Shown here: in pieces, positions 3 to 19,033 of the stretch
How the letters are laid out: each line of letters begins with the position of its first letter
How positions within the stretch are numbered: the stretch's first letter is position 1
IMG/VR virus record: IMGVR_UViG_3300009515_000001
Reading direction: 5' to 3' (one strand)
Origin: a virus
Taxonomy: Duplodnaviria; Heunggongvirae; Uroviricota; Caudoviricetes
Length of the DNA stretch: 64,000 bases
Position numbers and translations under genes: made by a program
The notes under the pieces: generated by a model
The model's database searches: none
What the model was told of the DNA's origin: nothing
The model's input: only the letters and a program-made list of their open reading frames with translations

Positions 3-160
3 ATATTCCTAGCAGTAGCAATCGGCAGTTTGGGAGTGCTTGGATACTTTGATCCATTGACAGGTTCACCAACTGTAGGAAGCTCTCTAACATACTTTTG
101 GGGCTTTATCATATTTTTGACCTTAGTTGGAGCCTTTTTAGGAAAGAGGTTCTTCTAGAA
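3..160 (+). CDS. C-terminal fragment of a membrane protein running off the window start; ends ...GKRFF
   Basis: Frame-3 open from window edge to TAG at 158-160. Hydrophobic translation IFLAVAIGSLGVLGYF...; C-terminal RFF resembles the other basic F-ended proteins in the window. Confidence 0.3.
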
Positions 161-177
161 ACCTACGGTTATGGACC

Positions 178-420
178 ATGAAATACCAAAATAAACAACT
201 CATAGAAACATCAGTTTTATCAGTTCTATTGATATTTCTAAGCGGATCTTTTTTCATATTAATTACACCATTTTTGTATGAAAATCAGGAACAGTTAGGA
301 TCTTTGTATAATCTTTGGTTACTTTTTCCTATTTTTGTTGTAGGATCAGTATGTGTTTGGGTGATCTTTAGAGTAAGACACGCTGAAAAAATACAAAAAA
401 AGATCAACAAGTATTCTTAA
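178..420 (+). CDS. small membrane protein (2 TM)
   Basis: ORF track; hydrophobic helices, basic C-terminus. Confidence 0.45.
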   Translation: MKYQNKQLIETSVLSVLLIFLSGSFFILITPFLYENQEQLGSLYNLWLLFPIFVVGSVCVWVIFRVRHAEKIQKKINKYS

Positions 421-453
421 ATAATAAACAATTTACGTAATAAATGACAGTAC

Positions 454-1071
454 ATGGGAAAATTTAGCCTCAAAGGCCACTTTCCAATAATGGAATTTAG
501 GTTAATGAGAGGACCAATGGTTCTAATGAAGGTAGGTGATCGACAATTAGAACTACGAAAAGTTACACGCCATCAGGGAAAATACTTTAAAACAATAGAT
601 GGGATCTTTGAGTTAGACGGAGAGTATGCTTACAACTTATCAGGCCAACAACTTTTAATCTATAATTTATTTAATGCAAAACCAATATCAATAACTGGAA
701 TCGAAAGAGTTCAGCAGTTATACCGAGAAAAAAAGGCTTCATTATTAGTAAAAGAACTTGAAAGAATTAATTCAGCAGTAGAAGCTTCAAGTGAAAAACG
801 TTACCAAGATCCAATTCATGCTATGGCAGAACTTTACAAGGGAAAGCCAGACGAGTTAAACAGACAGACACAAAAATATTTGATTGATTCAAGGTTGTTT
901 GACAAAGATGATCTGAAACTACAAAATACAGCGATGATGAACGCAAGAAATGTCAACAAGGGATTATCATTAAAAGTTCCAACAATAATTCCATTATTAT
1001 TAATGTCTGTCATAGGAATTATGACAGTAGTTGTAATGTCACAGTTTAATCCTCTTCGGTGGATCAGTTGA
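454..1071 (+). CDS. hypothetical protein with C-terminal TM anchor; paralog of 1059-1925
   Basis: Shares motif G-I/V-FELD-x-E-x-Y ... Q ... IYN with the next ORF. C-terminal hydrophobic segment. Confidence 0.5.
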   Translation: MGKFSLKGHFPIMEFRLMRGPMVLMKVGDRQLELRKVTRHQGKYFKTIDGIFELDGEYAYNLSGQQLLIYNLFNAKPISITGIERVQQLYREKKASLLVKELERINSAVEASSEKRYQDPIHAMAELYKGKPDELNRQTQKYLIDSRLFDKDDLKLQNTAMMNARNVNKGLSLKVPTIIPLLLMSVIGIMTVVVMSQFNPLRWIS

Positions 1072-1925
1072 GCATATCATTAGTTGTTGATCCAAAAGTT
1101 GATTTTTCTGACTTTGGATTAATATGGTATGGCGGACCACTTGCATTAATTTTAACAGAAAAAAACCATTTCAAGCTAAGAAAAATTGAAAAGATGAGGG
1201 AGTATTTCATAAACGAGTACGGAGTTTTTGAGCTTGATTCTGAAACAGAATACCGTTATGGCAAACAACCAATCTCAATCTATAACAGTCATGGAACACG
1301 AATTCCAAGAAAGATTGTAAATCGTGTCAAAAAACATTACAGACAAGGCAAAAACATGGCAATTCGTAAAGACCTGGAAGAGATCTATCCAGAACTGAAA
1401 GCCTATAACTTCAAAAGCGTATATGAGATTTTTCAGTATTTAGTAAAATCCAGTGGTCATCAGGCAATAGATATTGATACCGAAAAATACCTACCATTTT
1501 ATCGTGCCTACAATCCAATCAGTATAAAAAGGCTAAACGAAGTATGCCAAGTTGGGCGTAAGGCAATAGATTCACTTCACCCATCATTAAAGCCACCATT
1601 TCCTGTGATTGTTGCAATTGTAGGTGGAATTCTTGGCTTGGCATTTATACAAAATGCGCCAAAATATGTGCGAGAGGCCGTTGGTTATTTTGAAAGTTTT
1701 AGTAAACCAGAACCAGTTCCACCACCACCAGCACCGGTTGAAGTGGATGTTGTATCTGTTCCAGCTACTGAAACTATTGCTGAAAATGCAACACAGGGAA
1801 TTCAAACAACAGTTGAAAATGGAGTAGAGATCATTTCAATACCAGAACCAGCAAACTTTCTGCTTAGTTTGTTAAATTACATAGATCCACTGGCGTTTTT
1901 AGGGAGTTTATTTTCTTTTTTATAA
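1059..1925 (+). CDS. hypothetical protein with TM segment; paralog of 454-1071
   Basis: Same FELD...IYN motif as the previous ORF. TM helix VIVAIVGGILGLAFI; PPPPAP linker. Confidence 0.5.
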   Translation: MDQLSISLVVDPKVDFSDFGLIWYGGPLALILTEKNHFKLRKIEKMREYFINEYGVFELDSETEYRYGKQPISIYNSHGTRIPRKIVNRVKKHYRQGKNMAIRKDLEEIYPELKAYNFKSVYEIFQYLVKSSGHQAIDIDTEKYLPFYRAYNPISIKRLNEVCQVGRKAIDSLHPSLKPPFPVIVAIVGGILGLAFIQNAPKYVREAVGYFESFSKPEPVPPPPAPVEVDVVSVPATETIAENATQGIQTTVENGVEIISIPEPANFLLSLLNYIDPLAFLGSLFSFL

Positions 1926-1931
1926 CTGAAA

Positions 1932-2411
1932 GTGAGTACTGGATCTATATTGGATAAAAAAAAGAAGTGGATGGTATTTGATAAATCAGTGATAACTATT
2001 GTTAGTTTTGTAATTGTATTGGGTTTTATTGGAATTGATTCAATTTCAGCATTTGGTCCAAATGATCCTGAATGTTTTGAAGTTCCAGACCAAGAAGATT
2101 GTCCAGATTTTTTTGATCAGCCATTTGATCGTTTATTTGATCCATACAATTCAGTATTCCAAGATTTCACTTATGTTGTAGTATGGGCTATTATCATCGG
2201 GATTCTATGGTTACGTGTAAGCAATACTATGATGGTTGCTGTGATCGGTGTATTGTTAGCTGCGCTATTTACAAGACCTGATCCTGCTACGGGAGCTCTA
2301 ACAGGATTTTCAGAAGAAGCACAAGTAGTAGGTTGGGGCTTGTTAATTTTGGCTGTAATAGTAGCATTATACCAGATATTAACGGTAAGAATCCACTTTC
2401 CGACCAATTGA
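1932..2411 (+). CDS. membrane protein (3-4 TM)
   Basis: ORF track, hydrophobic helices. Confidence 0.5.
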   Translation: MSTGSILDKKKKWMVFDKSVITIVSFVIVLGFIGIDSISAFGPNDPECFEVPDQEDCPDFFDQPFDRLFDPYNSVFQDFTYVVVWAIIIGILWLRVSNTMMVAVIGVLLAALFTRPDPATGALTGFSEEAQVVGWGLLILAVIVALYQILTVRIHFPTN

Positions 2412-3607: not shown

Positions 3608-3626
3608 TAAAGAAGAAAATAAAATT

Positions 3627-3869
3627 ATGTCATTGAATCCTAGCGATCAGCCTAAAAGAAAAAGCAGTGACTTTGATTTTACTAAACAGTTTGATATTTT
3701 CATTAAAGAAGGAAATGTTTTTGGAGTTAGAAAAGAACCCAAAAAAATAAGCACTTTTGTTCCACCAAGCCCTGATGTTGGACTTGATAGATCATTTAAT
3801 GCAGAACAATTATCAATTAAAAACAAAACTAGAAGTGCAAAATTAACAAAGAGGTTCTTTGACTTTTGA
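3627..3869 (+). CDS. small basic protein, FDF motifs, ends RFFDF
   Basis: ORF preceded by promoter box. Member of the basic F-ended protein family. Confidence 0.45.
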   Translation: MSLNPSDQPKRKSSDFDFTKQFDIFIKEGNVFGVRKEPKKISTFVPPSPDVGLDRSFNAEQLSIKNKTRSAKLTKRFFDF

Positions 3870-3938: not shown

Positions 3939-6900
3939 TTGAAAATGGTTCGTAGAATAGCAAAGTCATCAAGATTTTCAAGATCTGTTCCATCAATAAA
4001 ACCAGTTAGAGTTGCACCAGATGTAAAAACAACAAAAAAACCAACAAGAAAAACTACACCTAAAAAAGCAACAGCGCCACCACCAAAACCATCGCCAGTA
4101 ATTTCTTTACCAACAGCACCTGCACAACCTTCAAGAGTTTCAAAGGCAAGTAGGGTTTCTGGGGCTAGAGTTATCATTCCCAGTAGAACTGTAACACCTA
4201 CACCACGACCATCACCAGTGGTTCAAAGACCAACACCAACACCAACAACTACAAAAAAACCATCACCATCAGAACCAAAAGTAGTAGTTCAGCAACCAAC
4301 TACTGTGGTGAAAACATCAATTTCACAAGATGAAAAGGGAAATATTGCAAGCTCACAATCACAAGTTGTTGAAACACCTGCGGCTGTTCAGGAAGTAAAA
4401 CAACAACCATCAGGTGTTCCATTAATACCTGGTGTTCCTGGATTAATAGGTGGTATTCCATTGGCTGCAGGTGCTATACCATTTCAAGAAACAACATCAA
4501 AAAGTCAGGCAGAAGAATCATTATTTGGATTTAAAAAACCTGAAGGTGGCGCGGCTGAATCAAGGGCAGAAGCTTTAGATTTATCAGAAAAAGTTTTGAG
4601 TGAAGAAAGAATTAAAGTTCCCACCGAAGAAGTTGTAGAAGTAATTCCAGGTGGTGAACCAACACAAGAAACTAGAACATTCATTGATCCAAATACAGGA
4701 TTATTAACAACTGAAACAGTGACTACAACACCTGGAGATATTGAAGTAACCACACAGAAAGGTGGGGAGATTGTAAAACAGCAAATTGGACAATCAGAAG
4801 TAAAACCAGACTTTTCAGATCCGCTTGGAAGTTTGGTAAGTGGCGCAAGTCAATCAGCATTAAACGAAGTGATTGGAATTAAAAATTTACCAGCAGCTGT
4901 ATCAGGTGGTGAACAAGAAGAATTATTTGCAACTCCATCAGCAATATTAGGCGAAGGATTATTTTCAGCAGTTGGTAGAGTTGGCGGACAAATATTTGAT
5001 CTAGGGCGACAGGCCGCTGGAAAACCAGAAGCAAAACCTGGTGAACAGGTTACAACATTTGGAATAGCTGGAGATAAAGTTACATTTACACAACAGGAAA
5101 GAGGACCAGATGCTTTCCAAATTCTTGAAGAATCTGGACAAAGAGCAACTAGAATAGCAGTTGCAGATCCATTATTTGCTGTTGGTGACATCGCAGTACA
5201 AGTTCCATTGTTAGTAGTTGCACCAGTTAAAGCGGCTTCAGTTGCAATCAAAGGTGTTGGAGCGGCTGGCAAAGCAATCAAAGGCGTTACAAAAGCTGGG
5301 AAAACACAAAGGTTACTTTCAATAACAGGAGAAAAAGTAACATCACCAAAGCCAAAAACACCACTTTCAAAAACATTTGAACAGGAATTCTTACAAGCTG
5401 AACAAATAAAGAAAGCACAAGCCCCACAAAAAGGACAGATTGAACAATTTGGTTCATTATCAAAGGCAGAACAAGATAAGTTATTACAGTCACAAAGATC
5501 CCAGTTTGAAGAAGCATTAAGTAAAGCACAGCAAAGACAAAAAGTAAAAAGAGATCTTGGACCATCAGAACCAACAGCAGAATTTGCACAAAGACAAAGA
5601 GATGCAAGTGAGTTTGCAAGAATTCCACAAGAAAGAATCAGCCCATCACAAATTGATCCAAATTTACAAAAAGCAATTAAAGAGTTAGAAGGTGGTGGTG
5701 ATCCAGATCTTTTCAAAGTAAGAGAAACAGGAAGATTCACATCAACTCCAATAGAACTTGGAAGAGGAACAGGAATCAGGCTAGGTGATGATCTTGGGGA
5801 TGTTGGAAGAGGTGGTGGTGCAAGACCACCAAAGCCACCAAGTGGCGGTGAACCAAGAGTTTTGGGTGGAGAAGGATCACCGTTTGGTGAATCAGGATTG
5901 CCACTAAGACCAAGTAGTTTTCCAGGTGCTGCAGAAAGAGTTTCAGAAATTGGAAAAGCACAAGGAAGAACAGGATTTACAGGAACATCATTAGATTTAG
6001 GTAGAGCAACAGGAAGGGCTTCTGAAGAAGTAAGTGCAGGACTTGAGGGATTTACATCGGAAATAATAGGATTAGGAACAGGAGTGGCTAAAAAGTCAGC
6101 TAAAGTTACAAAATCACAAATCGATAATTTATCAAAATCAGCAAAAATACCAAAAGACAGGGCAGAAAAAATATTACGAGATGCAGCTGACAAAGGTTCT
6201 GATTCAGCAGAATTTAGAACGGTTACATCACCAGAAGGGTTAAACCTAATTCAAAAACAGGCTACTAAACAAACATCGGCATTAAAACAACTTGAAGAAG
6301 CTAGAAAAGCATTACAAAAGACAAAGAGTACGCAAAAAACAGTTTCAAGTGTAGCAGATCAAAAAACACAAAAAAGGTTATCAGATTTAATTAAAAAGGA
6401 AAAACAAAAGGCAAAAACAGCAGGAAAATCAGTTAGTGCTGAAAAGGCAACACAAAACGCTTTACGAAAATTAATTGCCGCAGAAAAAGCAAAAACAGGA
6501 ACAAAGGCAATATCTTCAACAGAAGATATTCTATTCCAAAAACCTAGAAAACTAAAGGGTGTAACAGATGATGTAAGTGAAATTCAGATACGAAGGCCTG
6601 GTCAAGTTGGAATTCTAGGCGGTATAGCAACTGGTGTAGCGATAGGATCAGCAGTAGGAATTGGTTTAAATCAAGACCAAATCACACAACCAAAAATACT
6701 TGAAAACCCAAATTTATTCAATAAGCAAATTTCAAGACTGGTTAAAGATCCAACAATACAAATAGAAAAAACAGTTCAAAAACCAAAGGTAACAACCGTA
6801 CAGCAACCAATTTCAGATACAATATTTACACAACGACAAGATCAAAGATTTGCAATTTCAACATTATTCCCACAGGAAAAAATAACAAAACAACAGCAAC

Positions 6901-7211
6901 AGCAATCATTTTTCCAACAGCAAAAAGTAACGCAACCGATCCAAGAAATTACTACACAACAACAACAGTTTCTAAGACCTGGCAGATTCCGATTCCCCGA
7001 TGGTGTTGATGATGATAAAGCGGCAGAATCACGATCACAACGCAGATTCTTTAGATTATTTGACATAGCAAAAACACCGTTTGGTAGGGTTGAGGTAGGC
7101 GTAGGCGCACAGATCCAAAGTGAAAGACCGATCTTTGAGTTTGATGAAGAGTTAGAAAAGCGTGGCAGACGTAGAGAAAGAAACTTAGCAGAAGCTTTCT
7201 TCGATGTATAG
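3939..7211 (+). CDS. giant low-complexity protein (1090 aa): basic Pro/Thr-rich N-terminus, Gly/Ala-rich middle, Gln-rich C-terminus, ends AFFDV. Candidate virion or tape-measure-like structural protein
   Basis: 3.27-kb uninterrupted ORF on the dominant strand. Compositional domains read directly from the translation. Confidence 0.75.
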   Translation: MKMVRRIAKSSRFSRSVPSIKPVRVAPDVKTTKKPTRKTTPKKATAPPPKPSPVISLPTAPAQPSRVSKASRVSGARVIIPSRTVTPTPRPSPVVQRPTPTPTTTKKPSPSEPKVVVQQPTTVVKTSISQDEKGNIASSQSQVVETPAAVQEVKQQPSGVPLIPGVPGLIGGIPLAAGAIPFQETTSKSQAEESLFGFKKPEGGAAESRAEALDLSEKVLSEERIKVPTEEVVEVIPGGEPTQETRTFIDPNTGLLTTETVTTTPGDIEVTTQKGGEIVKQQIGQSEVKPDFSDPLGSLVSGASQSALNEVIGIKNLPAAVSGGEQEELFATPSAILGEGLFSAVGRVGGQIFDLGRQAAGKPEAKPGEQVTTFGIAGDKVTFTQQERGPDAFQILEESGQRATRIAVADPLFAVGDIAVQVPLLVVAPVKAASVAIKGVGAAGKAIKGVTKAGKTQRLLSITGEKVTSPKPKTPLSKTFEQEFLQAEQIKKAQAPQKGQIEQFGSLSKAEQDKLLQSQRSQFEEALSKAQQRQKVKRDLGPSEPTAEFAQRQRDASEFARIPQERISPSQIDPNLQKAIKELEGGGDPDLFKVRETGRFTSTPIELGRGTGIRLGDDLGDVGRGGGARPPKPPSGGEPRVLGGEGSPFGESGLPLRPSSFPGAAERVSEIGKAQGRTGFTGTSLDLGRATGRASEEVSAGLEGFTSEIIGLGTGVAKKSAKVTKSQIDNLSKSAKIPKDRAEKILRDAADKGSDSAEFRTVTSPEGLNLIQKQATKQTSALKQLEEARKALQKTKSTQKTVSSVADQKTQKRLSDLIKKEKQKAKTAGKSVSAEKATQNALRKLIAAEKAKTGTKAISSTEDILFQKPRKLKGVTDDVSEIQIRRPGQVGILGGIATGVAIGSAVGIGLNQDQITQPKILENPNLFNKQISRLVKDPTIQIEKTVQKPKVTTVQQPISDTIFTQRQDQRFAISTLFPQEKITKQQQQQSFFQQQKVTQPIQEITTQQQQFLRPGRFRFPDGVDDDKAAESRSQRRFFRLFDIAKTPFGRVEVGVGAQIQSERPIFEFDEELEKRGRRRERNLAEAFFDV

Positions 7212-7450: not shown

Positions 7451-7677
7451 TGAGAATATATTATGATCTAGTAGTTTGGGAAGAGATAGATCAATACGAA
7501 TTAGAGAAGCTACAAAACCGTTCACAAGAGTTTGCAAAAAGACTAAATGGTTTCGGAATACTTTCATTTAACATGAGGGCGCAACCACCACAACAACAAC
7601 AAGTACAACCAGCCGAACAACCTGTTGAAGAAGTTGAAGAAGAATCACCACAGGAAGAGGAGATAATTGATGAGTGA
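7450..7677 (+). CDS. small acidic protein (Q/E-rich tail)
   Basis: ORF; GGGAGGTGA Shine-Dalgarno 7 nt upstream of ATG. Confidence 0.45.
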   Translation: MRIYYDLVVWEEIDQYELEKLQNRSQEFAKRLNGFGILSFNMRAQPPQQQQVQPAEQPVEEVEEESPQEEEIIDE

Positions 7678-9058
7678 ATTGGTAAACGCATGGGATAACA
7701 AAAGAATTGACGACAAAACAGCGAAAAAACTTCTTAAAGAAAGGGTTCTAGAACTAACCCTTCCACCACATAATCTTAACAGGATACAAATATCCCACAT
7801 GATTAATAGATCAGTCACTACTGTTCATAGAGTACAAAGAGAATTGGTTAAAGATGGTTTACTTCAAACCACTGAAAATGGGTATCTAATACGTGCGGCA
7901 CAGCCAAAACTACTAAAGAGATTCCAAGATATATCAAAAACTGAATTTCTGAATATTCCAAGTGTGAAAAAATGGAAGCAGAAAATGGAGGCAAATGAGG
8001 TCAAAAACATACCATATTTAATATCAAATTTCTGGAAGGTATGCCAAACAATAGACGTTCACCCTGATGCCTTTCTATTGGATATGGAAGAAGTAATTCC
8101 ATTAATTGAAAAATTCAAGCTAATGTTTCGAGATGGAAAAGTATTGTATATGAAAAAAAAACATCTTGATGATCCAATAAAACAATCACAGGCAAACCCA
8201 CAACACTACATTGAAGCTGTTAGAAGTTTCATAAAAGGAAATGGAAAGGAGATACCAAAAGGAGAATTAGAAGTAAAAAGAAAACAAAACAAGCTTTATG
8301 CACAAATAAGAATAAACGATCAAGAAAGAATTCTAGGAATGAAATACATGGCAAAATTCAGTAGTGACCTTAGAGTTTTGTTTACAATTCATAATGAAAT
8401 TGGAGTTAGAGCTGATACATTGTTTAAAATGCGACCAAAGTTTGAAAAATTTACAAGAACCTTTGAAGGAATACCTTGTGAGTGGTATAAAGCATATATC
8501 TTTGAATCAAAACAAGAGAATACAAAAGGTGGTGGCGTTTATGAAAAATATATAATTACACCAAATGCAAGACTGATTGTTTCAAAACTTAAACCAGGAA
8601 AACAAATTCACAGCTACACAAATATTAAAAAAGGAAAAGATGAGTACAACCAAAAGCTAAGAGATTTCTTTGCAAGTATAGGAAAGATAAGTGATGATCC
8701 ATTTGAACAAGCTAAATATGAAAAAGGAACACAGGAATATTATCTAGTTAATGAACCAACACATGCCATGCGACATTCATGCGTTCACTGGTTAATGAGA
8801 ATTACAGGTAATAGAACCGAAGAAGTATCAAGTCTGTTTTGGGAACAGCCACAAACATTAAAGATCTATGCAAAGCAATCATTTGAAGATATGCTGGAAG
8901 ATGACACATGTTCACTATGCAATCCAGATCCAAATGACGAAAGATATAGAAGGTTCTGCACATTAAAACACGCATTGATATTCTATAATACTGATAAAAA
9001 ACAAAGAGAAGATCTTAGAAATATAAAAAATTGGGGGGATAGAAATGAAATTAAATGA
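7667..9058 (+). CDS. tyrosine recombinase / integrase with N-terminal HTH
   Basis: HTH NRSVTTVHRVQRELVKDGLL. C-terminal catalytic signature R...HAMRH...HWL...KIYAK (box II H-x-x-R plus candidate Tyr nucleophile). Confidence 0.65.
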   Translation: MMSELVNAWDNKRIDDKTAKKLLKERVLELTLPPHNLNRIQISHMINRSVTTVHRVQRELVKDGLLQTTENGYLIRAAQPKLLKRFQDISKTEFLNIPSVKKWKQKMEANEVKNIPYLISNFWKVCQTIDVHPDAFLLDMEEVIPLIEKFKLMFRDGKVLYMKKKHLDDPIKQSQANPQHYIEAVRSFIKGNGKEIPKGELEVKRKQNKLYAQIRINDQERILGMKYMAKFSSDLRVLFTIHNEIGVRADTLFKMRPKFEKFTRTFEGIPCEWYKAYIFESKQENTKGGGVYEKYIITPNARLIVSKLKPGKQIHSYTNIKKGKDEYNQKLRDFFASIGKISDDPFEQAKYEKGTQEYYLVNEPTHAMRHSCVHWLMRITGNRTEEVSSLFWEQPQTLKIYAKQSFEDMLEDDTCSLCNPDPNDERYRRFCTLKHALIFYNTDKKQREDLRNIKNWGDRNEIK

Positions 9059-9497: not shown

Positions 9498-9623
9498 ATG
9501 ATGGCTGAACCGCCAAGCGAAACAGAAGGTCCTATATGTAAAAACTGTGGAAAACCAATGAATAGACATACATACTCTCAACAAATAAGATGTCAAAAAG
9601 AGGCAAAGGAAAACGGTTTCTAA
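9498..9623 (+). CDS. 41-aa zinc-ribbon peptide (ICKNCGKP...RCQKE)
   Basis: Read from sequence; below the 60-aa ORF-track cutoff. Confidence 0.3.
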   Translation: MMAEPPSETEGPICKNCGKPMNRHTYSQQIRCQKEAKENGF

Positions 9624-10142: not shown

Positions 10143-10703
10143 TTGAGTTTACAAGAACATTTGATTAAAGTATTAGAAAAAAAACAATTACACCAAAGAA
10201 AAAGATCAAAAAAGAGTTTATCAAATGAATGGTGGACACCTGAAAAACTATACCAATACCTAACAAAGAATTGGAAAATAAAACCAAAATTAGATGTATG
10301 TGCAACCTATCAAAATTCAAAATGTGAATGGTATTTAGATAAAAAAGCAGATGCGACAAACCCTGAAACAGAATGGACAATACCAAAAAATAAAAGAGTT
10401 AATGTTTGGTGCAACCCACCTAATGAATTTACACAGGAATTACTTTATAGAGCATATATAGAATGGGCTTTATCAAATGGCAGACAAAAAATAATGATGA
10501 TCATACCAGCAAACGTACTTTCTTCACAGGGATTCAAGTATAATGTACGAATTCCTATTGATTATGGAGAGAATGTTCACTTTAGAGAGATAGAAGGTAG
10601 GCCAGAATTCTTGGAAAATGGAAAAAAACCAGATAGTTCATCAAGAAATGCCTACATTGTGATCGGTTGGGGAATAGAAGATCCATTCATACCGACATGT
10701 TAA
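10143..10703 (+). CDS. phage-type DNA N6-adenine methyltransferase (Dam_N6 / pfam05869-like)
   Basis: WWTP...DVCA...VWCNPP motifs in the family order. TTG start. Confidence 0.7.
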   Translation: MSLQEHLIKVLEKKQLHQRKRSKKSLSNEWWTPEKLYQYLTKNWKIKPKLDVCATYQNSKCEWYLDKKADATNPETEWTIPKNKRVNVWCNPPNEFTQELLYRAYIEWALSNGRQKIMMIIPANVLSSQGFKYNVRIPIDYGENVHFREIEGRPEFLENGKKPDSSSRNAYIVIGWGIEDPFIPTC

Positions 10704-10747: not shown

Positions 10748-11728
10748 ATGTCATTCTTTGGTGGAAGTCCTAGATTAGCTGATGTTGGAGATTTTTTACC
10801 AAAAAGAAAAAAGAAAAATGGTAAAAATGGAAGAAATGGCAGATCTGGTTTAGCAAATGGTCGAGGTGCCAAAGAAGCGGCTATGGGTTTTGAATCACCA
10901 GGATTTTTCAGTGGGCTTAGACAAAACGGAAATGGATCAAGAGGAATACCAAAGGCTGATCCAGTTGGTTTTGATAGAGGTTTAGAAATACCTGAATTAG
11001 GAAGTGGATTTAATTCAAGAATTGGAAACATTGGTTCAGGATTTGTAGAATCAGTAAATCCATTTAGAATTGGTTTTAGTGATGTATTAACAGGTAACGG
11101 TAGAACAGGCGAAATTATCAAAGGTAGTGGTGGATTTGTTACGCCATCTATTGGTAAAAGAAAGAGAGGCAGACCAAAGGGAAGTGGTAAAAAACAAAAA
11201 GTAGTTCAGAAAGGATTAGGAAAATCAAAGACATTAGAATTTGATACCAAAGGAGCAAAAAAATTACGAGCAGAAGCAATTCAATTAGCGAGAGAAGGAA
11301 AAACTGATGAAGCACGAGCTAAGCTTTCACAAATTCAAACTAAGAGTGTAGGTGGATTACTTAAGGAAGATATTAAATCTAAAGGTGGTAGATTAAAACA
11401 AAGTTTGGGTTTTACAGGCGATGATCAAAGAGAAGAAATTTCACTTGATGAAATTCAAGAAACAATTAGAGCAGATAGAGAACCAGGTGGACTTGGAACA
11501 AGACTAGAAGAAATAGAATTAGAAAGAGAAGTTGACGAAGAAAGTAGAGAAAGATTACAGGAAGCATTAGCAACTGAAAGAGCTAGTGAAGGTGCATTGG
11601 AAGAAGCAGTAGTTGAAGAAGTAGATGAAGAAGAAGAAAACGGATTAGATGAAGATTTGGATGAAATAGAAAAAGATGACTTTTCATTTGAAGTTGATGA
11701 ACAAGGACAAATACAAAGGAGGCGATAG
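10748..11728 (+). CDS. Gly/Lys/Arg-rich basic protein with acidic E/D tail (326 aa); candidate virion-associated protein
   Basis: ORF after promoter box; compositional bias. Confidence 0.55.
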   Translation: MSFFGGSPRLADVGDFLPKRKKKNGKNGRNGRSGLANGRGAKEAAMGFESPGFFSGLRQNGNGSRGIPKADPVGFDRGLEIPELGSGFNSRIGNIGSGFVESVNPFRIGFSDVLTGNGRTGEIIKGSGGFVTPSIGKRKRGRPKGSGKKQKVVQKGLGKSKTLEFDTKGAKKLRAEAIQLAREGKTDEARAKLSQIQTKSVGGLLKEDIKSKGGRLKQSLGFTGDDQREEISLDEIQETIRADREPGGLGTRLEEIELEREVDEESRERLQEALATERASEGALEEAVVEEVDEEEENGLDEDLDEIEKDDFSFEVDEQGQIQRRR

Positions 11729-11812: not shown

Positions 11813-12559
11813 ATGGGAGAATTCCAGTTGGTTAACGGAAAACGTAAACAATCAAATGATATAGGATTCAAAGAGGTAGATTTCTTTGCAGGTATTAGAA
11901 CACCGTCACCTGATGATGATAGAAGAGTTAAATTTGTTGCAAGAAAAAGAGGAAAGAAATCACCGTTACCAAGACCAAAGATTGCAAGACTACAAGGAAT
12001 TAACGGATTTGAGGGAATAAATACAAAACTACCAAAAGCAACAAAAAAACTTCCAGCAGGATTAGCTGAAGTTTCTGGTTTATCATTTGATAAAGTATTT
12101 GGTTTAGGTAAAACAAAGGATACAAATCCATTCAAATCAAAAATAGGAATTGATCCAGGATTTGGAAAGGGAACTTTTGATGTTGATTTTTCAGAAGGAT
12201 TTGCAAATCAAGAGTTTGACTTTGGTGAATCAACAATGATTAGTGACGATTTTCCAGAACCAGATCAAATAGATTTTGTCGGTGAATCAGATGTAGATCG
12301 TGATGTTCCAACATTATTAGATTCGATTCAACAACTAGGAGATGATCGTAGAGTTCCACTAACAGACGAAGAAGATGATATGACAAGGAATGAAAAATTA
12401 GAAAGAAAATTTAGAAGAGTGAGAGCTGAAGCATTGGAAACAGGTGCAAATCCATTGTCACCAGAAGAACAAAGGTCGTTTGAATCATCTACCAAATTTA
12501 CTAGAAATTTTGGAACTACATCGAAAAAATCAAGAGGCGCAGGATTTGAGGGATTTTAA
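11813..12559 (+). CDS. basic protein with FDxDF repeats, ends GAGFEGF
   Basis: ORF; member of the F-ended basic family. Confidence 0.55.
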   Translation: MGEFQLVNGKRKQSNDIGFKEVDFFAGIRTPSPDDDRRVKFVARKRGKKSPLPRPKIARLQGINGFEGINTKLPKATKKLPAGLAEVSGLSFDKVFGLGKTKDTNPFKSKIGIDPGFGKGTFDVDFSEGFANQEFDFGESTMISDDFPEPDQIDFVGESDVDRDVPTLLDSIQQLGDDRRVPLTDEEDDMTRNEKLERKFRRVRAEALETGANPLSPEEQRSFESSTKFTRNFGTTSKKSRGAGFEGF

Positions 12560-12837
12560 TGGCTAGAAAAAACAGAACTATAACAGATGAAGAAAAAATG
12601 TTCGGAGTATTCTATGCACATAACAATAAACGAAGTAAAAAAGCAAGAGAAGTTGACAATGCCAGTACAAAAGGCGTTGATACAAATCTGGCAAAGTGGT
12701 GGGCTGAAGGTGGAAAAAGAAGTGACTGGCCTGGAATTGATACGGTTGTTAGAGTAAAGCCAAGAGGCTATACAAAAATGAAAGGAAAAAAAGCATTTGA
12801 CAATATCACAGATATAATAGGAAAGGGTGGATTTTGA
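12559..12837 (+). CDS. small basic protein, ends GKGGF
   Basis: ORF; GAGGGAT SD-like sequence upstream. Confidence 0.5.
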   Translation: MARKNRTITDEEKMFGVFYAHNNKRSKKAREVDNASTKGVDTNLAKWWAEGGKRSDWPGIDTVVRVKPRGYTKMKGKKAFDNITDIIGKGGF

Positions 12838-12876: not shown

Positions 12877-13131
12877 ATGGTTAATGGAGTTGGTAATGTA
12901 GCAGGAACAATTGGAACAGTCGTAGGACTAGGTGTGACATTAGGAGCATTAGGTTTAGCATTAGAGTTTGTTGACAGATCATTTGATCGTGCAACACCAA
13001 GAAATGCAAAAGGAAAAAGACGAAAGCGACAACCATTGTTTGACATGGGTTTTGATCAACCAAGAACAAAGTCAAAAGGAAGAAGATCAAATAACATATT
13101 TGATGTTCCAAGAGGAGGTGACTTCTTCTAA
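12877..13131 (+). CDS. small protein with Gly-rich hydrophobic N-terminus and basic tail, ends RGGDFF
   Basis: ORF with SD. Confidence 0.5.
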   Translation: MVNGVGNVAGTIGTVVGLGVTLGALGLALEFVDRSFDRATPRNAKGKRRKRQPLFDMGFDQPRTKSKGRRSNNIFDVPRGGDFF

Positions 13132-13343
13132 TGGGATTTGGATTTGGTAAAAAAGGCAAGAAAAAAAAATCAGTAGATGATATATTAGAAATTGATGAAG
13201 ATGTGATGAACCTTAAACTTGACGGTAGTAGGGGATAGCAAAATGCCGCATAAAGGACTAAAAGTTCCACTAAAGAACGCAGGAACTAAAAATAAATTTC
13301 TTAAAGTAGGAAAGAAAAATCCTTTTAGAGGTGAGATCTTCTA

Positions 13344-13754
13344 ATGGTTAGACGAATTTCAAGAGGTAGAACAGGCGGATTTTCTGAACGTGGAAGAATA
13401 AGAACAGGTGGATTCGTAACTTCATCATCAAAAACTAATATACAAAAAACTGGACAGAAAAGAAAAGCAGGAGCACAGATAGTAAAAGCAGAAAGAATAA
13501 GACAGGTTGCTTCATCAATCCGACCAAAAATAAGAGTTGCACAACAACCAAGATTAGTGAAGGCACCACCACCAAGAATAAGTTCACAGCAAAGAAAAGT
13601 TACAATAACGAACCCATTATCATCATTAATCAACGCAATAGAAACTACTTCATTAAGAAATGCACAAAGAAAAGAACAGTTAAGACAGCAAAGACTTAGA
13701 GGGGAAAGATCTGAAGCATTTTCAATAGATGAAATTTTTGGGGGATTCCTATGA
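13344..13754 (+). CDS. very basic Arg/Lys-rich protein, ends IFGGFL
   Basis: ORF; GAGGTGAG SD upstream. Confidence 0.5.
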   Translation: MVRRISRGRTGGFSERGRIRTGGFVTSSSKTNIQKTGQKRKAGAQIVKAERIRQVASSIRPKIRVAQQPRLVKAPPPRISSQQRKVTITNPLSSLINAIETTSLRNAQRKEQLRQQRLRGERSEAFSIDEIFGGFL

Positions 13755-13912: not shown

Positions 13913-14104
13913 ATGGTAAATGGGAAAAAAAGAAAAAAACAGGATTCAAGACGTAAACCAAGAGTAAAGAAACACTCAAAGACAGTTGATTTTAACTTTG
14001 GAAGATTTCCTAAAGTAAAATTTTGTGACAAATGTTTAGTTCCACATACAATTAACGAACATAGATTTCATGGTGCAGGCGCATTTGATAGGACACATAA
14101 GTGA
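13913..14104 (+). CDS. small basic protein (KKRKKQDSRRKPRVKK)
   Basis: ORF with GGAAGGGA SD upstream. Confidence 0.4.
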   Translation: MVNGKKRKKQDSRRKPRVKKHSKTVDFNFGRFPKVKFCDKCLVPHTINEHRFHGAGAFDRTHK

Positions 14105-14316
14105 TTAAAATGGTATTTGACATGGACAAAGATCTAACAGAAGATTTCAAAGATATTGTCAGTGGTGGTAAGAAAAAGAAAACTTCAGTAAAAGATTTTG
14201 AATTTTCAAGAGAATCAGCTGCAAAGTTAGACTTGGGATTTGATGAAACAATATCAGATAAAGATCCTATTGCAGTAGGTCATAAACGTATTTTTGGAAA
14301 AGGAAAAAGGGGGTGA
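14101..14316 (+). CDS. small protein
   Basis: ORF track. Confidence 0.35.
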   Translation: MIKMVFDMDKDLTEDFKDIVSGGKKKKTSVKDFEFSRESAAKLDLGFDETISDKDPIAVGHKRIFGKGKRG

Positions 14317-14576: not shown

Positions 14577-16733
14577 ATGGGTGCAACACAGGAACTAAAA
14601 AATGCACAAGCTGGTGTTGAAAGGTCACAAGCATTAATCAAACAGGCAGAAGCACAAATAGCTAGTGCTAAGGCAAGTGGTCGTAGTACATCATCAGGAG
14701 AAAGATTACTAGCGGCTGCTAAGCAAAATTTAACAGTTTTTCAAAGTAGAGCTCAAACAGCTTTTCAAGAAGTAGCAAAAGAAGAGTTTGTAAAAAGAAA
14801 GGCACAAGCAGAACGTGAAAGAAAACAATTAGAAGCCCAAAGGAAAGCCGAAGCCGCAAGAAAGAAAAAAGAGGCTGAATTAATTGCACAAAGAAAAGCA
14901 ACAGAAGAATCAAAAAGATTACAAGAAGAAAGAGCAAAGGCAGAACAAGCTTCAATATTAGATGTAGCCACGACACCAAAACCGATAGCAACAACTGGTG
15001 AAGAAGCCCAATTACAAAAGTTAGAACAAAGAAGAGAAGATGTAATTGAAAAATTAGAGAAAACAAGAGCAATAGAAAGATTGGAAGCTGGAACAACTGT
15101 TTTTGAAACAGGAGCAGGTTTCAAACCTGTCAAAATAGATTCGGGGGCTGGTCAAGTTTTCAAAAGGCCAGACGGAACTATATTTGTAGTTAGGGATGGT
15201 AAAACGACAGAACTCCCAAATATTAGAACAATACAGCCAGGATCATCAGAAGGATTATTTATAACTGGTCAAGTACAATCACAGCAAGTAGATACCCTTA
15301 GTGATCTTTTAGATGTAGAAAAACAAATTGCAATTATCAAAACAGAAGAACCTGGAACACCAGAATCAAGATTTTCCGATAGTGACCTTGCAGGAGTAAA
15401 GGCTTTAGAAACAGCACAGCAAACAAGAGGGATTGAAGCAACACCAGATCTATTTCCTGGTGAAACAATTCTAGGAACAGCAGAAGAGTTTGGTGTAGCA
15501 GTTCCAGCTAAAGTAAAAGTAGGTCCAGGTGAGTTTGTTGAACTACCAAAAATTTCAGGAACATTATTTGCAGAAGTAGAATCACCTAGTCAATTAGCAA
15601 ACAGGTTAAATGAACAGTTTATTCCTGGTTCAGATTTTGTAGTTAAGGGCGGTGAAGTAACCGAATTTGTTAGAACTCCTCTTGATCCATTCCAAATAGC
15701 ACAGGAAGAACGTGAACAGACAGGATTAATTCCAGGTGAACCAGTGAAGTTTGGTGAGTTATTAGGTTTTGATATTCCAGATGAAAAGCCAAAAAAGACT
15801 ACAACCCAAACAAAAGTTACAAAATCAAAAGATCCATTACAAGCAATTGCAGAAGCTGGTTTACAACCATCATCACAACAAATCTCATCAGGTTTCATTC
15901 CATTTTCACCACAACAAGATGTAATATTGCCAACATTAGATGTAGGAGGTGGTGGAAAAAGAGGCCAAAGTGTATTCAACCAACAGTCAAAAGTTCCTGA
16001 AATAGACATTCCAACTACTGATAAAATAGGATTACCGCCAATCCCATCAGCAGGACTTGTTAAAGGCGCACCAACAGTGTTACCAACAGTCGAAACTTTT
16101 GGTGATTTTCTAGGAGATCTTGGAAAGAGTTTAGGAATTGCTGGAACAAGCTTTTTTGACACAATTTCAAAAGGTGTAAGTTTTACAGGTATATTTGGTG
16201 GATCTACATCGAAACCAAAATTAACAGAATCACAGAAAGCGAAAAATGAAATTGCTTCATTAAAAAGAAGAGGTGGATCAGTACCAGCTTCATTAATTAA
16301 CAAAGCATTTCCAGAAAAAGCAAAACAAGCTAAACAGTTAGGATTTCAGTTAAATTCACAAGGAGAATTTGTAGAAGGATTTAGATCAAAAGGAACGTTA
16401 ACAGGAGCTAAAGCAAGTTCAGCAAAAACATTACAAGCTTCAATAACAGCAAGAGAAAAAGCAAAAGCCGAAGCTGAAAGAAAGAAACGTGAGAGAGAAG
16501 CAAAGAAAAAAGCAGAAGCTGCAAAAAAACAAAGAAAAATAAGTAGAGCAAAAACACCAAAATCTGCAAGAATAATTGTAGGTAGTACTGGAAGAAAGAA
16601 AATTACAAAAACTTCAACGCCAACAAGAAGAAAAAAACCAAAAAGAGTTTCAAAACCATCACGTACAACCGAAATTAAAATCAGAAATCCATTTGAAAGC
16701 TTTGGATTTGGAGATAGGAGTGGGTTCTTCTAA
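14577..16733 (+). CDS. 718-aa protein: N-terminal A/K/E coiled coil, central Gly/Pro region, Lys/Arg-rich C-terminus ending RSGFF. Candidate structural protein
   Basis: Long ORF on the dominant strand; composition. Confidence 0.7.
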   Translation: MGATQELKNAQAGVERSQALIKQAEAQIASAKASGRSTSSGERLLAAAKQNLTVFQSRAQTAFQEVAKEEFVKRKAQAERERKQLEAQRKAEAARKKKEAELIAQRKATEESKRLQEERAKAEQASILDVATTPKPIATTGEEAQLQKLEQRREDVIEKLEKTRAIERLEAGTTVFETGAGFKPVKIDSGAGQVFKRPDGTIFVVRDGKTTELPNIRTIQPGSSEGLFITGQVQSQQVDTLSDLLDVEKQIAIIKTEEPGTPESRFSDSDLAGVKALETAQQTRGIEATPDLFPGETILGTAEEFGVAVPAKVKVGPGEFVELPKISGTLFAEVESPSQLANRLNEQFIPGSDFVVKGGEVTEFVRTPLDPFQIAQEEREQTGLIPGEPVKFGELLGFDIPDEKPKKTTTQTKVTKSKDPLQAIAEAGLQPSSQQISSGFIPFSPQQDVILPTLDVGGGGKRGQSVFNQQSKVPEIDIPTTDKIGLPPIPSAGLVKGAPTVLPTVETFGDFLGDLGKSLGIAGTSFFDTISKGVSFTGIFGGSTSKPKLTESQKAKNEIASLKRRGGSVPASLINKAFPEKAKQAKQLGFQLNSQGEFVEGFRSKGTLTGAKASSAKTLQASITAREKAKAEAERKKREREAKKKAEAAKKQRKISRAKTPKSARIIVGSTGRKKITKTSTPTRRKKPKRVSKPSRTTEIKIRNPFESFGFGDRSGFF

Positions 16734-16809: not shown

Positions 16810-17007
16810 ATGACTAGAAAAAGAATAGAAAATGCAGTAACAATAAGAAGGATACCTAAAACAGAAGAATTTTTCAATCTAGGTAAACAACCATCAATAC
16901 CAACTAGAGGGTTATCCACAATAATTTCTGATAAACCAAAAAGAAAAACCCTAAAGTTCAGCATTAATGAGTTAGCAAATAACAGGATGGAGAGTACACA
17001 TGGTTAA
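16810..17007 (+). CDS. small basic protein
   Basis: ORF track. Confidence 0.35.
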   Translation: MTRKRIENAVTIRRIPKTEEFFNLGKQPSIPTRGLSTIISDKPKRKTLKFSINELANNRMESTHG

Positions 17008-17257
17008 CAGTATTATTTCAAAAAGAGCTACAAAAAGCATTAGAAGTAAGGGTTTTATTAAAAATGATTTTGATCCTATCGACATAGTAGATACAGTAAA
17101 TGTATTCTTTCTAGGACCAAATGCGGCTTTATCAGAAAGAAATAGAAAGATTGCACAGAAAGATTTTTCAGCTCAACTTGGATCATTTGGTGGAGATTTT
17201 GGCATGTTTACACTGAAGGATAAAAAATCAAAAGAAATAAGGAGTTTTGGGGAATAA
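17000..17257 (+). CDS. small protein, ends RSFGE
   Basis: ORF with GGAGAGT SD-like upstream. Confidence 0.45.
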   Translation: MVNSIISKRATKSIRSKGFIKNDFDPIDIVDTVNVFFLGPNAALSERNRKIAQKDFSAQLGSFGGDFGMFTLKDKKSKEIRSFGE

Positions 17258-17520
17258 TGGTAGGAAAAAAATCAACTAGAGAAGCTGTAAACAAATTTAG
17301 AAGTATGAGATTTCCAGGAACTGAAAGAAGATTAGGATTGCCACCTGGTCACTTCATAGTTCCCAAAGGTCAAAAGATTTCAGATATTCATTTTCTTGGA
17401 ACTGAAAGAAGATTAGGATTGCCACCTGGAATGAAGTTGCCAAGTGTTGATCAAAGAAAAAAGGCTAGAAACCGTATAAAAAAGTTTGAAGAATTTGACA
17501 TCAGGGGTGAATTGATTTAG
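17257..17520 (+). CDS. small basic protein with internal duplicated GTERRLGLPPG repeat
   Basis: Exact 32-nt DNA repeat at 17317-17348 and 17398-17429; AGGAG SD upstream. Confidence 0.5.
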   Translation: MVGKKSTREAVNKFRSMRFPGTERRLGLPPGHFIVPKGQKISDIHFLGTERRLGLPPGMKLPSVDQRKKARNRIKKFEEFDIRGELI

Positions 17521-17561
17521 TAGATAAGACCTTAAAGAAAATTGAATCTAATAATATTAGA

Positions 17562-17744
17562 ATGTTAGGTAAAGCAGGAAAGTTCAATAATTCAAGTATT
17601 TTTACAGCACCTGGTTTAACAAAAGCTGATAAAATTATAACTAAAAGATTAAAGAAAAAAAATATCAAATCAACAAGAAAGGGATTTTTAACAGATGAAG
17701 AGTTTGATAGATTCAGTAATAAATTATTCAGGAGAGAAATTTAA
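17562..17744 (+). CDS. small basic protein
   Basis: ORF track. Confidence 0.35.
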   Translation: MLGKAGKFNNSSIFTAPGLTKADKIITKRLKKKNIKSTRKGFLTDEEFDRFSNKLFRREI

Positions 17745-18409
17745 TGGTATTATTCCTTGACAGACCTGATACAAAATTTTTAATCCAGCAAAAAGGATGT
17801 GCGCCATCAGAAGCATTTGCTATTCTTGAAAGAGGTGGAGATCCATCAAAAAAATGTGGTGGCAGACTTGGTAGTGCAAGAAACATTTCACAGCTAAGAG
17901 AGCAATTTCCAGGATTTGATTCAGCGTATAGTCAAACATTAGCAATCTTACAAGCAGAAGAAGAAGAAGCAAAAAAGTCAGCCCCACCACCACCACCACC
18001 TCCACCACCAGTAGTTGAAGAACCACCACCACCAGTAGTTGAACCACCACCAGTAGTTGAAGAACCACCACCACCAATACCAGATCCAATAGGTTCAGAT
18101 CCATTAGGGGTAACAGTAAAAAGAAAGAAATCAAGATTAGATAAGGTAAGACAAAAAACAGCTCAACGTAGGGGTAAACCAATACCAAAGGACATTGATA
18201 TTGCTGCACAGTTTGGATTTCAGGGGATAGTAACAAAACCTACAAGATTCTTGGTCGGTGAAGCAGGACCTGAAAGAGTAATGATTAAACCAATCAAAAA
18301 AGCAAAAAATATTTTTGATTTTAACTTTGCAAAACCAAGAAAATCAGCAAGAAGAAGAAAAAATAATAATTTCATGTTTGACTTTGACTTTGGGAAGGGC
18401 ATATTCTAA
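17744..18409 (+). CDS. protein with PPPPVVEE proline-repeat linker, ends FMFDFDFGKGIF
   Basis: Tandem CCACCACCAGTAGTTGAAGAA DNA repeats at about 17985-18078. Confidence 0.55.
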   Translation: MVLFLDRPDTKFLIQQKGCAPSEAFAILERGGDPSKKCGGRLGSARNISQLREQFPGFDSAYSQTLAILQAEEEEAKKSAPPPPPPPPPVVEEPPPPVVEPPPVVEEPPPPIPDPIGSDPLGVTVKRKKSRLDKVRQKTAQRRGKPIPKDIDIAAQFGFQGIVTKPTRFLVGEAGPERVMIKPIKKAKNIFDFNFAKPRKSARRRKNNNFMFDFDFGKGIF

Positions 18410-18645
18410 TGGTCAGATTAAGAAAAAAAAGAAAAATAAACATCTTTGGATTAGAGGTTAACGCACCAGACACAGTTCCAGATGACATACCAACATTGTT
18501 TAAAACATTTAGAGAAGCAGAAGGAAAACCAAAAAAAGAACTAGAAAGAATTAACAGATTTAAAAAAAGATTTGAAGAAATTGAGGAATATCAAGCATGG
18601 GAACAAAGCCAACGAAGTTCAGGAAGAAATGGGAGATTAAGATAA
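18409..18645 (+). CDS. small basic protein
   Basis: ORF track. Confidence 0.4.
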   Translation: MVRLRKKRKINIFGLEVNAPDTVPDDIPTLFKTFREAEGKPKKELERINRFKKRFEEIEEYQAWEQSQRSSGRNGRLR

Positions 18646-18829
18646 TGGGCTGTGCATGTGATCTAGGAGTTAAGGAAATAAAAAAAGCCAGAAAAAGATC
18701 AAAAAAGAAAGATGATTTCCAAACAATAACAATGGGGTTGATCTAGTTGGCTAGAACAATGTCAAGAGCAAAAGGAAAAAGAATCAAAACACCATTTGGT
18801 AAAATTACAGCTAGGAGTGAGGTAAAGTA

Positions 18830-19033
18830 ATGGTTCTATTAAGTTTATTTTTACTTGCAGGAATTGACGAAGCAATTAACCCACCAAGAAAAAGAACAAT
18901 CGCAAAGCGAGTAAAGCTTGGATTAACGCCAGAAGAACAAAGAAGGTTGTTTGCACCAGTTGATTTTACATCTTCAACTGGTTTGGGAGTTAGAAAACGA
19001 AAAAGAAAAGGTCGGAGAACCATAACATTTTGA
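18830..19033 (+). CDS. small basic protein (ends RRTITF)
   Basis: ORF track. Confidence 0.35.
   Translation: MVLLSLFLLAGIDEAINPPRKRTIAKRVKLGLTPEEQRRLFAPVDFTSSTGLGVRKRKRKGRRTITF

Follow-up and report, generated by a model that had tools for sequence, protein, structure and literature searches.

We analyzed a 64,000-nucleotide stretch of DNA (hereafter, the window) from a virus record, IMGVR_UViG_3300009515_000001, and found that a block of genes at 3.6 to 19 kb encodes ~20 non-homologous proteins that share a protein-level short linear motif. The motif consists of a cluster of Lys/Arg residues with a nearby aromatic-containing triplet, very often together with an aromatic last residue (the tip). 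More than 10 non-homologous families carry this aromatic-tip signature, and its presence on so many unrelated families argues for a common function or a common partner rather than for duplication.

Aromatic residues are enriched at the last position of block proteins

Terminal residues were counted using mechanical + strand gene calls, and this revealed Phe as the last residue in 9 of the 28 + strand genes at 3.6 to 19.1 kb versus 6 of the 102 elsewhere in the window (Fisher p = 6 × 10−4). The excess also held against the Phe content of the block proteins (5.3%; binomial p = 9 × 10−6), and 7% of the off-frame open reading frames (ORFs) ended in F. These counts bore out the initial annotation, which had noticed a C-terminal Phe on many basic proteins of the block. 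All of the ORFs and endings listed there were present, with the partial ORF at the window start ending at 158 rather than 160 and the RTMKF peptide lying at 58112-58228; three members had been missed, at 13219-13344 (RGEIF), 18830-19033 (TITF), and 58029-58112 (SQDF).

When F, Y, and W were counted together in the four clades of viruses described below, 9/30, 9/35, 6/38, and 11/22 block proteins of clades I to IV, respectively (30%, 26%, 16%, and 50%), had an aromatic last residue, compared with an aromatic content of 7 to 9% in these proteins. The excess was restricted to position −1 (16 to 50%), with values of ~10% at positions −2 to −10. Two genomes of the Nipumfusiviridae with a comparable composition, taken as a control, were at background (aromatic ends in 3/41 and 4/51), and a general trait of thaumarchaeal viruses was rejected on that account.

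Tips in four diverged clades

Using homologs of two block proteins, those encoded at 17744-18409 and 14577-16733, we reached syntenic loci of metagenomic relatives in four diverged clades, namely, clade I (the window, L005, and L003), clade II (L001, L002, L006, L007, and a 111-kb contig), clade III (L018 and L019), and clade IV (L020 and L024). The order of the block was constant: a large protein, an integrase-like gene, a Dam methylase gene, and small basic genes including those for one or two 630- to 830-aa proteins. Listed by gene, the orthologous tips were GGDFF/RGDFF/GGGYF, GKGGF/GESGF/GESGFENKF, GKGIF/GVEF/MEFDF/GGGMF, ITF/LTF/YTF, and SGFF/SGFI/GGFGF/DLFY. Tips of clade IV use Y (TAY) and W (TGG) besides F, and a 4-residue extension in that clade, from GESGF to GESGFENKF, regains a terminal F. 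The Gly and Phe codons of the tails differ synonymously among orthologs, and tips are kept when the Shine-Dalgarno (SD) sequence lies 3′ of the stop codon and in genes that no downstream start overlaps. Since it is conserved lineage-wide and tied to a widespread protein family (see below), the aromatic tip is a genuine finding, and a stronger one than could be seen from sequence alone.

Internal and two-part motifs

Inside the block proteins, FD occurred 29 times versus 11.6 expected (z = 6.1), DF 25 versus 11.9, GF 35 versus 20.1, and F[DE]F 8 versus 1.6, and no comparable excess was seen in the remainder of the window. Thus, the internal FDF-type motifs pointed out in the initial annotation are real and are over-represented in the block only. 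We then defined a two-part motif as at least 2 Lys/Arg followed, within 8 residues, by an aromatic-acidic/Gly/Asn-hydrophobic triplet (examples being FDF, FDM, FGF, and NPF); it was found 24 times in the block versus 4.4 expected and 20 times elsewhere in the window versus 21.5 expected. Orthologs in clade II carry repeated KKSTNIFDMG units, and relatives carry GIFGGGFGGGRRFG tails. Exemplary aromatic-tipped tail peptides are KNNNFMFDFDFGKGIF and RNPFESFGFGDRSGFF.

Known short motifs did not account for the signature. The PIP box (Q-x-x-[LIVM]-x-x-[FYW]-[FYWL]) was found 0 times in block proteins versus 0.2 expected, and the Cdc48/p97 SHP box (F-x-G-x-G), which we included in view of the stand-alone CDC48 N-domain protein encoded in the window, once versus 2.1 expected. 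Archaeosortase signals (PGF-CTERM/PEF-CTERM) consist of a motif, then a transmembrane helix, then a basic cluster at the extreme C terminus; these were rejected, since here the aromatic is itself the last residue and no block protein has a C-terminal hydrophobic run of at least 15 residues. A single paralogous family was rejected as well: phmmer all-against-all gave one marginal pair, via the tail motif, and the family profiles were without cross-hits, so that the word "family" in the initial annotation does not hold in the sense of shared ancestry.

Gly-Gly is largely the ribosome-binding site of the next gene

Overlap with the next gene, in the form TAATG, is common among block genes, and the virus uses SD sequences. 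An GGAGGTGA-like or GAGGTGA SD often lies within the last 3 to 5 codons of the upstream gene, where it is read as Gly-Gly or Arg-Gly, and the endings might thus be a by-product, made by the SD, spacer, and TAATG start of the next gene in the last codons together with the Phe codons of AT-rich DNA. In the four clades, at least 2 Gly at positions −2 to −6 were linked to an overlapping or abutting downstream start (21/26 genes; odds ratio, 6.5; p = 3 × 10−4), whereas the terminal aromatic showed no association with stop/start overlap (odds ratio, 1.03; p = 1). These results indicated that Gly-Gly is largely the in-frame SD of the next gene and that the aromatic is a separate protein-level feature. 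Translational coupling therefore accounts for most of the Gly-Gly component and was rejected as the cause of the aromatic terminus; of the Gly-Phe-Phe consensus read from the window at first, the aromatic end stood and the Gly-Gly part largely dissolved.

Codon usage pointed in the same direction. The terminal Phe codon is mostly TTC in a genome that prefers TTT 70:30, which excludes a T-run terminator over the stop codon. AT-richness or Phe codon bias was likewise rejected, given this preference for TTC, the 7% of F-ended off-frame ORFs, and the AT-rich Nipumfusiviridae without excess. In addition, tails persist without overlap, Y/W substitutes occur in clade IV, and the motifs are enriched far from gene ends. 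A by-product origin is thus refuted for the aromatic residue and stands for most of Gly-Gly; as an account of the endings as a whole, we regard it as very improbable.

A tape measure motif in an aromatic-tipped family

The 221-aa product of 17744-18409 ties the tip to a widespread family. Its residues ~158 to 183 contain GFQGIVTKPTRFLVGEAGPERVMIKPI and fit the C-terminal tape measure motif GxVxxPTxxLxGExGPExVxP (more fully, G-[IY]-V-x-x-P-T-x-x-L-[IV]-G-E-x-G-P-E-x-V-x-x-P). In a tblastn search, the stretch matched for the most part genes annotated as tail tape measures in unrelated phages (those of Campylobacter, Nitratiruptor, Bacillus, Serratia, and Lactobacillus), at individually weak E values, and the aligned motif, (A/F)xGG(I/Y)VxxPTxxL(I/V)GExG(P/Y)E(A/M)(V/I)IPL, lies near the C terminus of the phage proteins. 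A profile of the 17744-18409 family matched 267 proteins at E ≤ 1 × 10−3 among 1.84 billion representatives. Seven large matches were tested, and four were Pfam- or PHROG-confirmed tape measures and one a tail protein. The small matches (≤300 aa; n = 90) typically have the motif, then a basic cluster and an FDFDF...GGMF-type tail; 39/90 were aromatic-ended and 41/78 had an FDF-like triplet, compared with 8/42 and 3/29, respectively, for matches longer than 600 aa. Both of the small matches whose contigs were examined lie inside the same conserved block. These data indicated that the aromatic-tipped tail is an integral trait of the virus group and widespread in it, not specific to the window.

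Like phage tape measures (PF10145 PhageMin_Tail; PHROG "tail length tape measure protein"), the 17744-18409 product has the C-terminal motif, and the 718-aa and 1090-aa proteins of the block are, by inspection, long and of low complexity. Unlike them, it is only 221 aa long and has neither the PhageMin_Tail core nor a PHROG hit, and the large tape measure matches for their part rarely have its basic, FDF-rich aromatic tail. No tape measure core (PhageMin_Tail or TP901-type) or PHROG match was found for 3939-7211, 14577-16733, or 17744-18409, and tblastn of the 718-aa protein against phage records gave no match. Tail tube, chaperone, and baseplate genes were not recognized in the 64-kb window, and ~29 kb of the 92.9-kb source contig lies outside it. 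An AlphaFold model of the 221-aa family was of low confidence (pLDDT of 61), with values below 50 in the tail, which is predicted to be disordered.

Genes of the block and their products

Block proteins have a median pI of 10.1 versus 8.4 elsewhere in the window, and 75% of them versus 44% elsewhere fall on the disordered side of the Uversky charge-hydropathy boundary. The description of the members as very basic therefore holds in general, with the exception of the products of 10748-11728 and 11813-12559, which are acidic overall (pI 5.6 to 5.9). In some members (12877-13131 and 18830-19033), a hydrophobic helix at the N terminus leads into a polybasic tail with the tip. Pfam and PHROG searches gave no hits on block proteins, and a profile search against PDB sequences gave Pro-rich low-complexity matches only. 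The genes of the block and of a mini-cluster of four consecutive small F-ending ORFs at 57.5 to 58.2 kb are as follows.

3..158, +, C terminus of a giant protein; hydrophobic anchor, then GKRFF-COOH; ortholog B_3_9317 ends FLGKRFF
3627..3869, +, 80-aa basic protein; SDFDFTKQFDIF near the N terminus; ends KRFFDF, as does the ortholog on the 111-kb contig
3939..7211, +, 1090-aa protein; basic Pro/Thr-rich N terminus, Gly-rich hydrophobic segment, tail RRFFRLFDIAKTPFG...AEAFFDV; orthologs end DFGNIFA and KFFGFNI
10748..11728, +, 326-aa protein; starts MSFFGG; Gly/Arg/Lys-rich N-terminal half with GF repeats, acidic C-terminal half; last residue not aromatic
11813..12559, +, 248-aa protein; VDFF, FDVDF, and EFDF motifs; ends GAGFEGF; orthologs end FEGGF, SFGRF, and GRGFY, and GGAQR in clade III
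12559..12837, +, 92-aa basic protein; ends IIGKGGF; orthologs GRGGF, GESGF, and GESGFENKF
12877..13131, +, 84-aa protein; N-terminal Gly-zipper hydrophobic helix, polybasic tail with LFDMGF and NIFDV; ends RGGDFF; orthologs GGDFF or RGDFF in three clades and GGGYF in clade IV; the last codons contain GGAGGTGA, the SD of the next gene
13131..13238, +, 35-aa peptide; starts MGFGFGKKGK; kept in all clades
13243..13344 (ORF 13219-13344), +, 33-aa basic peptide; orthologs start at MPHKG; ends NPFRGEIF; orthologs end RGDFF, TGEFF, VGSFG, and VGDLT
13344..13754, +, 136-aa protein, pI 12; ends SIDEIFGGFL
13913..14104, +, 63-aa basic Cys2/His2-type peptide; VDFNFGRF after the basic cluster
14101..14316, +, 71-aa protein; KKKKTSVKDFEF and LGFDE motifs; ends RIFGKGKRG
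14577..16733, +, 718-aa protein; Ala/Lys/Gln-rich N-terminal region, polybasic C-terminal region; ends IRNPFESFGFGDRSGFF; tail nearly identical in 813- to 833-aa clade II paralogs despite 37 to 40% overall identity; further ortholog endings GGFGF, RRFG, GGFRR, and EDLFY
17000..17257, +, 85-aa protein; GFIKNDFD and SFGGDFGMF motifs; ends RSFGE
17257..17520, +, 87-aa basic protein; GTERRLGLPPG duplicated internally (copies FPGTERRLGLPPGHF and FLGTERRLGLPPGM); ends KKFEEFDIRGELI; orthologs end DFEFGGELI and VFNLGDELL
17744..18409, +, 221-aa protein; small N-terminal domain, Pro-rich linker, tape-measure-type motif GFQGIVTKPTRFLVGEAGPERVMIKPI, then KKAKNIFDFNF...RRRKNNNFMFDFDFGKGIF
18409..18645, +, 78-aa basic protein; starts MVRLRKKRKINIFGLEV, a basic cluster plus IFG at the N terminus
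18830..19033, +, 67-aa protein; short N-terminal hydrophobic segment, polybasic tail; ends RRTITF; ITF, LTF, or YTF in all four clades
57575..57790, +, 71-aa basic peptide; ends RRGLGF; first of the four mini-cluster ORFs; no homolog in the relatives' loci examined
57955..58026, +, putative 23-aa basic peptide; ends PTGGF
58029..58112, +, putative 27-aa basic peptide; ends KSQDF
58112..58228, +, 38-aa basic peptide; ends RTMKF; clade III homolog (62% identity, E = 2 × 10−9) ends MPKSGF

Within the mini-cluster, conservation was confirmed for 58112-58228 only. The ORF at 58262-58375 encodes a Met-rich basic peptide, MPGLTKKGMMMVKKARDMRKDAMMMRKKGMMMKKKRG, with a weak likeness to a 34-aa clade II block peptide (E = 0.016). 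The ENGF ending of 9498-9623, which is without conservation in other clades, is probably due to chance.

The window-start ORF is the C terminus of a giant protein whose ortholog in the 111-kb relative (L023 1-9317) is annotated as 4717 aa long and has weak Fn3 hits. There, this ortholog and small membrane proteins come just before the block. The giant protein is probably a fiber or adhesin anchored by a C-terminal hydrophobic helix. Two genes of other kinds lie inside the block with their position kept in the four clades, one for an integrase-like protein (7667-9058; N-terminal HTH and HAMRHSCVHW...Y) and one for a Dam methylase (10143-10703). The relatives' block also encodes Arg/Ala-rich, protamine-like proteins of 150 to 240 aa (L018 7729-8325, 12517-13236, and 13608-14069; L007 5532-6053), of which no counterpart was seen in the window.

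A proposed shared C-terminal ligand and its rivals

The reading that we favor, tentatively and at somewhat less than an even chance, is that the tip would be a C-terminal ligand common to disordered, DNA-binding proteins that undergo joint assembly, most plausibly within the virion or in a tail/ejection apparatus. We are led to it because the peak is position specific, the carriers are many and unrelated, and the signature is confined to a single conserved module. In such an arrangement, ~20 mostly disordered polycationic proteins, a few of them with an N-terminal anchor, would sit in the virion with the DNA and/or in the tail/ejection apparatus, and their basic stretches would bind and neutralize DNA. 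The aromatic-acidic tip, with its free carboxylate, would be the shared ligand, docking client proteins on one surface (the inner shell face or a tail hub) or on each other and so leading to joint incorporation, and on the membrane-anchored members and the giant protein that tip would face the DNA. The initial annotation had suggested that the common ending could be a signal for sorting, processing, or assembly, for example of virion core or DNA-condensing proteins. The part about a shared signal gained from the last-residue peak and from its recurrence in more than 10 families and four clades, while the notions of one family and of a Gly-Phe-Phe consensus were lost. Consistent with the sorting or assembly idea, the block is basic and disorder-prone, lies 3′ of the giant Fn3 and membrane proteins, and includes the protein with the tape measure motif.

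Several observations weigh against a shared ligand. Just about a third of the block proteins have an aromatic last residue, and many end in Lys/Arg. Sequence identity over the last 8 residues does not exceed that of the protein bodies (0.51 versus 0.52), and by manual count the terminal aromatic was retained in ~18/25 cross-clade comparisons, which is little above the general retention of aromatics. The block limits were set after viewing the data, so that the p values given above are optimistic. No candidate receptor for the tip was found, and no capsid, portal, or terminase genes were recognized in the window. Finally, an integrase-like gene and a Dam methylase gene within the block in all clades are unusual for a purely structural module.

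The main rival holds that the proteins are disordered polycations that condense DNA or RNA and that Phe beside Gly/Asp works as a generic cohesive sticker, with no receptor and nothing special about the terminus. Sticker-driven coacervation of this kind is known from RGG/GAR and FG-type low-complexity regions, to which the block proteins may be compared by analogy. The idea accounts for the enrichment of internal FD, DF, GF, and F[DE]F, for the KKSTNIFDMG repeats of clade II and the GIFGGGFGGGRRFG tails, and for a strongly basic, disorder-prone block with protamine-like Arg-rich proteins in relatives. However, stickers predict no positional preference, whereas the aromatic peak is sharp at the last residue, and the extended ortholog GESGFENKF regains a terminal F. 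Cohesive stickers thus explain the internal repeats and not the terminal peak, and we consider them a somewhat unlikely explanation of the whole.

A bolder version of the shared-ligand reading, which we think unlikely, makes the tip a dedicated packaging/ejection code, in which one viral receptor would read the free aromatic C terminus of more than 10 unrelated polycationic clients that are loaded with the genome and delivered with the DNA into the host. Candidates for this receptor are the shell, a tail hub, and the HerA/FtsK-type ATPase encoded at 47155-48912. If true, this would be a client-hub system without a described counterpart in archaeal viruses.

Alternatively, the block might encode effectors, made or delivered early, whose acidic-aromatic tips imitate a host docking tail and capture host replication or translation factors. 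Docking tails that come to mind are bacterial SSB-Ct (DDDIPF), the Phe-ended tails of T7 gp2.5 and gp4, and the ribosomal stalk tail (GFGLFD or LFG), and the endings FDFDFGKGIF, DDFDFGGGMF, FGFGDRSGFF, and RRFG or SVFG resemble them at the level of sequence; genes for integrase-like, Dam methylase, and zinc-ribbon proteins occur in between those of the block. Yet neither OB-fold nor stalk homology was found with Pfam and PHROG, the tips have one or two acidic residues and no acidic run, and the PIP box is absent. We regard such mimicry, argued by analogy, as quite improbable.

Proteolytic maturation, with the motifs marking cleavage sites of a viral or host protease, is hardly credible: adenovirus core proteins are cut by adenain at (M/L/I)xGG|x or (M/L/I)xGx|G, and IFGG|F-type sequences do occur in 13344-13754 and in clade II tails, with [MLI].G.G mildly enriched (9 versus 4.2 expected; 5/200 shuffles reach 9, which is marginal), but [MLI].GG. 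is not enriched (6 versus 4.3 expected), no protease gene was recognized in the window, most endings are off the adenain consensus, and cleavage would take off just 1 to 3 residues.

Comparison with known systems

No described counterpart of the terminal-aromatic signature was found in the literature searched. In SSB-Ct and in T7 gp2.5 and gp4, which are tails of nucleic-acid-binding proteins, a partner reads the last Phe together with its free carboxylate, and the block proteins appear to be similar in having a disordered tail that ends in an acidic-aromatic tip, as far as their sequences tell. They differ in that SSB has an OB-fold body and an acidic run ending in Pro-Phe, whereas the block has no OB/SSB Pfam hit, one or two acidic residues, and rarely Pro, and in that the tip here is on many unrelated polycationic proteins instead of one hub protein.

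Encapsulin cargo-loading peptides and the C termini of herpesvirus and P22 scaffolds are tags that load proteins into shells. By analogy, the tip would likewise be a short C-terminal peptide that targets unrelated proteins to one shell surface; unlike those tags, it has another consensus, no HK97-fold shell was identified, and the block motif is also internal and repeated. Viral DNA-condensing core proteins, such as adenovirus VII, V, and mu, baculovirus P6.9, and SSV1 VP2, are like the block proteins small, extremely basic, of low complexity, and encoded together, and the relatives add protamine-like members. Unlike them, the block encodes far more distinct proteins (~20), without sequence similarity to those core proteins, and neither an adenain-type protease nor enriched cleavage sites were found. 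We know of no described counterpart of the aromatic terminus in the adenovirus, baculovirus, or SSV1 core-protein systems.

Virus lineage, host, and other genes of the window

The window is AT-rich (~33% G+C), with nearly all genes on the + strand. Its recognizable genes encode a Dam methylase, a zinc-ribbon protein, an integrase-like protein, further methyltransferases, a HerA/FtsK-type ATPase, a MoxR-like AAA_5 ATPase, an SPFH protein, and the stand-alone CDC48 N-domain protein, a repertoire that is typical of a virus or mobile element. The sole link between the window and described viruses is the ATPase at 59959-61263, which matches ORFs of Nitrosopumilaceae spindle-shaped viruses (Nipumfusiviridae) at 23 to 30% identity (PMC10866085, PMC12451623). 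From this one protein, the host is probably a member of the Nitrososphaerota (ammonia-oxidizing archaea). The core genes of Nipumfusiviridae encode an alpha-hairpin major capsid protein, an ATPase, a zinc-binding protein, and three proteins of unknown function (PMC10866085). The likeness of the window to Nipumfusiviridae/Thaspiviridae consists of the shared AAA ATPase and AT-rich genomes with giant ORFs; unlike the 83- to 111-kb contigs here, their genomes are ~27 to 38 kb, no other gene is clearly shared, and the Nipumfusiviridae lack the terminal-aromatic excess.

A 92.9-kb JGI contig encodes a protein 100% identical to the 1059-1925 product; exact look-ups of the window proteins and of this identical protein gave no entry. 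Relatives lie on 83- to 111-kb contigs, and with only one gene linked to described viruses, this points to large archaeal viruses of a lineage not yet described. Scans of IMG/VR viral contigs and of GTDB reference genomes turned up no relatives. The 1059-1925 product, a paralog of its neighbor at 454-1071 (both with hydrophobic segments), has 53 relatives, many of them 58 to 87% identical; its conservation is far above that of the basic block, and it would be a good marker gene for this virus lineage.

Further genes were noted in the window. The 80-aa product of 178-420 is confidently predicted to form a two-helix hydrophobic hairpin (pLDDT 85), and it resembles capsid proteins of spindle-shaped viruses, but the fold search was non-specific. 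The HerA/FtsK-type ATPase at 47155-48912 has two C-terminal winged-helix domains, with phrog_2666, labeled "terminase large subunit," as its best PHROG match, and it may be a genome-packaging or translocation motor. The CDC48/VAT N-domain protein at 52150-52893 (PF02359 and PF02933, without an ATPase domain) could be a virus-encoded peptide-binding adaptor. Inspection of the translations at 44738-45376 and 44814-45527 showed a C5 cytosine DNA methyltransferase apparently split across two overlapping frames, with the N-terminal motifs in one and the C-terminal motifs in the other, which could be a frameshift, a pseudogene, or recoding. A tRNA-Pro(TGG) gene lies at 26102-26176 (− strand) within a gene-poor stretch at 25.7 to 26.9 kb, and an exact 37-mer of it had no match in a reference genome collection.

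Significance

A methodological lesson of this analysis is that what looks like a Gly-Gly motif at the C terminus can be the ribosome-binding site of the next gene read in frame. The proteomes of archaeal viruses are mostly without known relatives or functions, and a position-specific motif offers a handle on them that is independent of homology. The tip is a potential peptide bait for its receptor, and the tag a possible signature of related viruses in metagenomes. Should the tip prove to be a tag for loading or docking, it would mark the internal protein set of uncultivated, globally distributed 83- to 111-kb viruses whose hosts are probably ammonia-oxidizing archaea.

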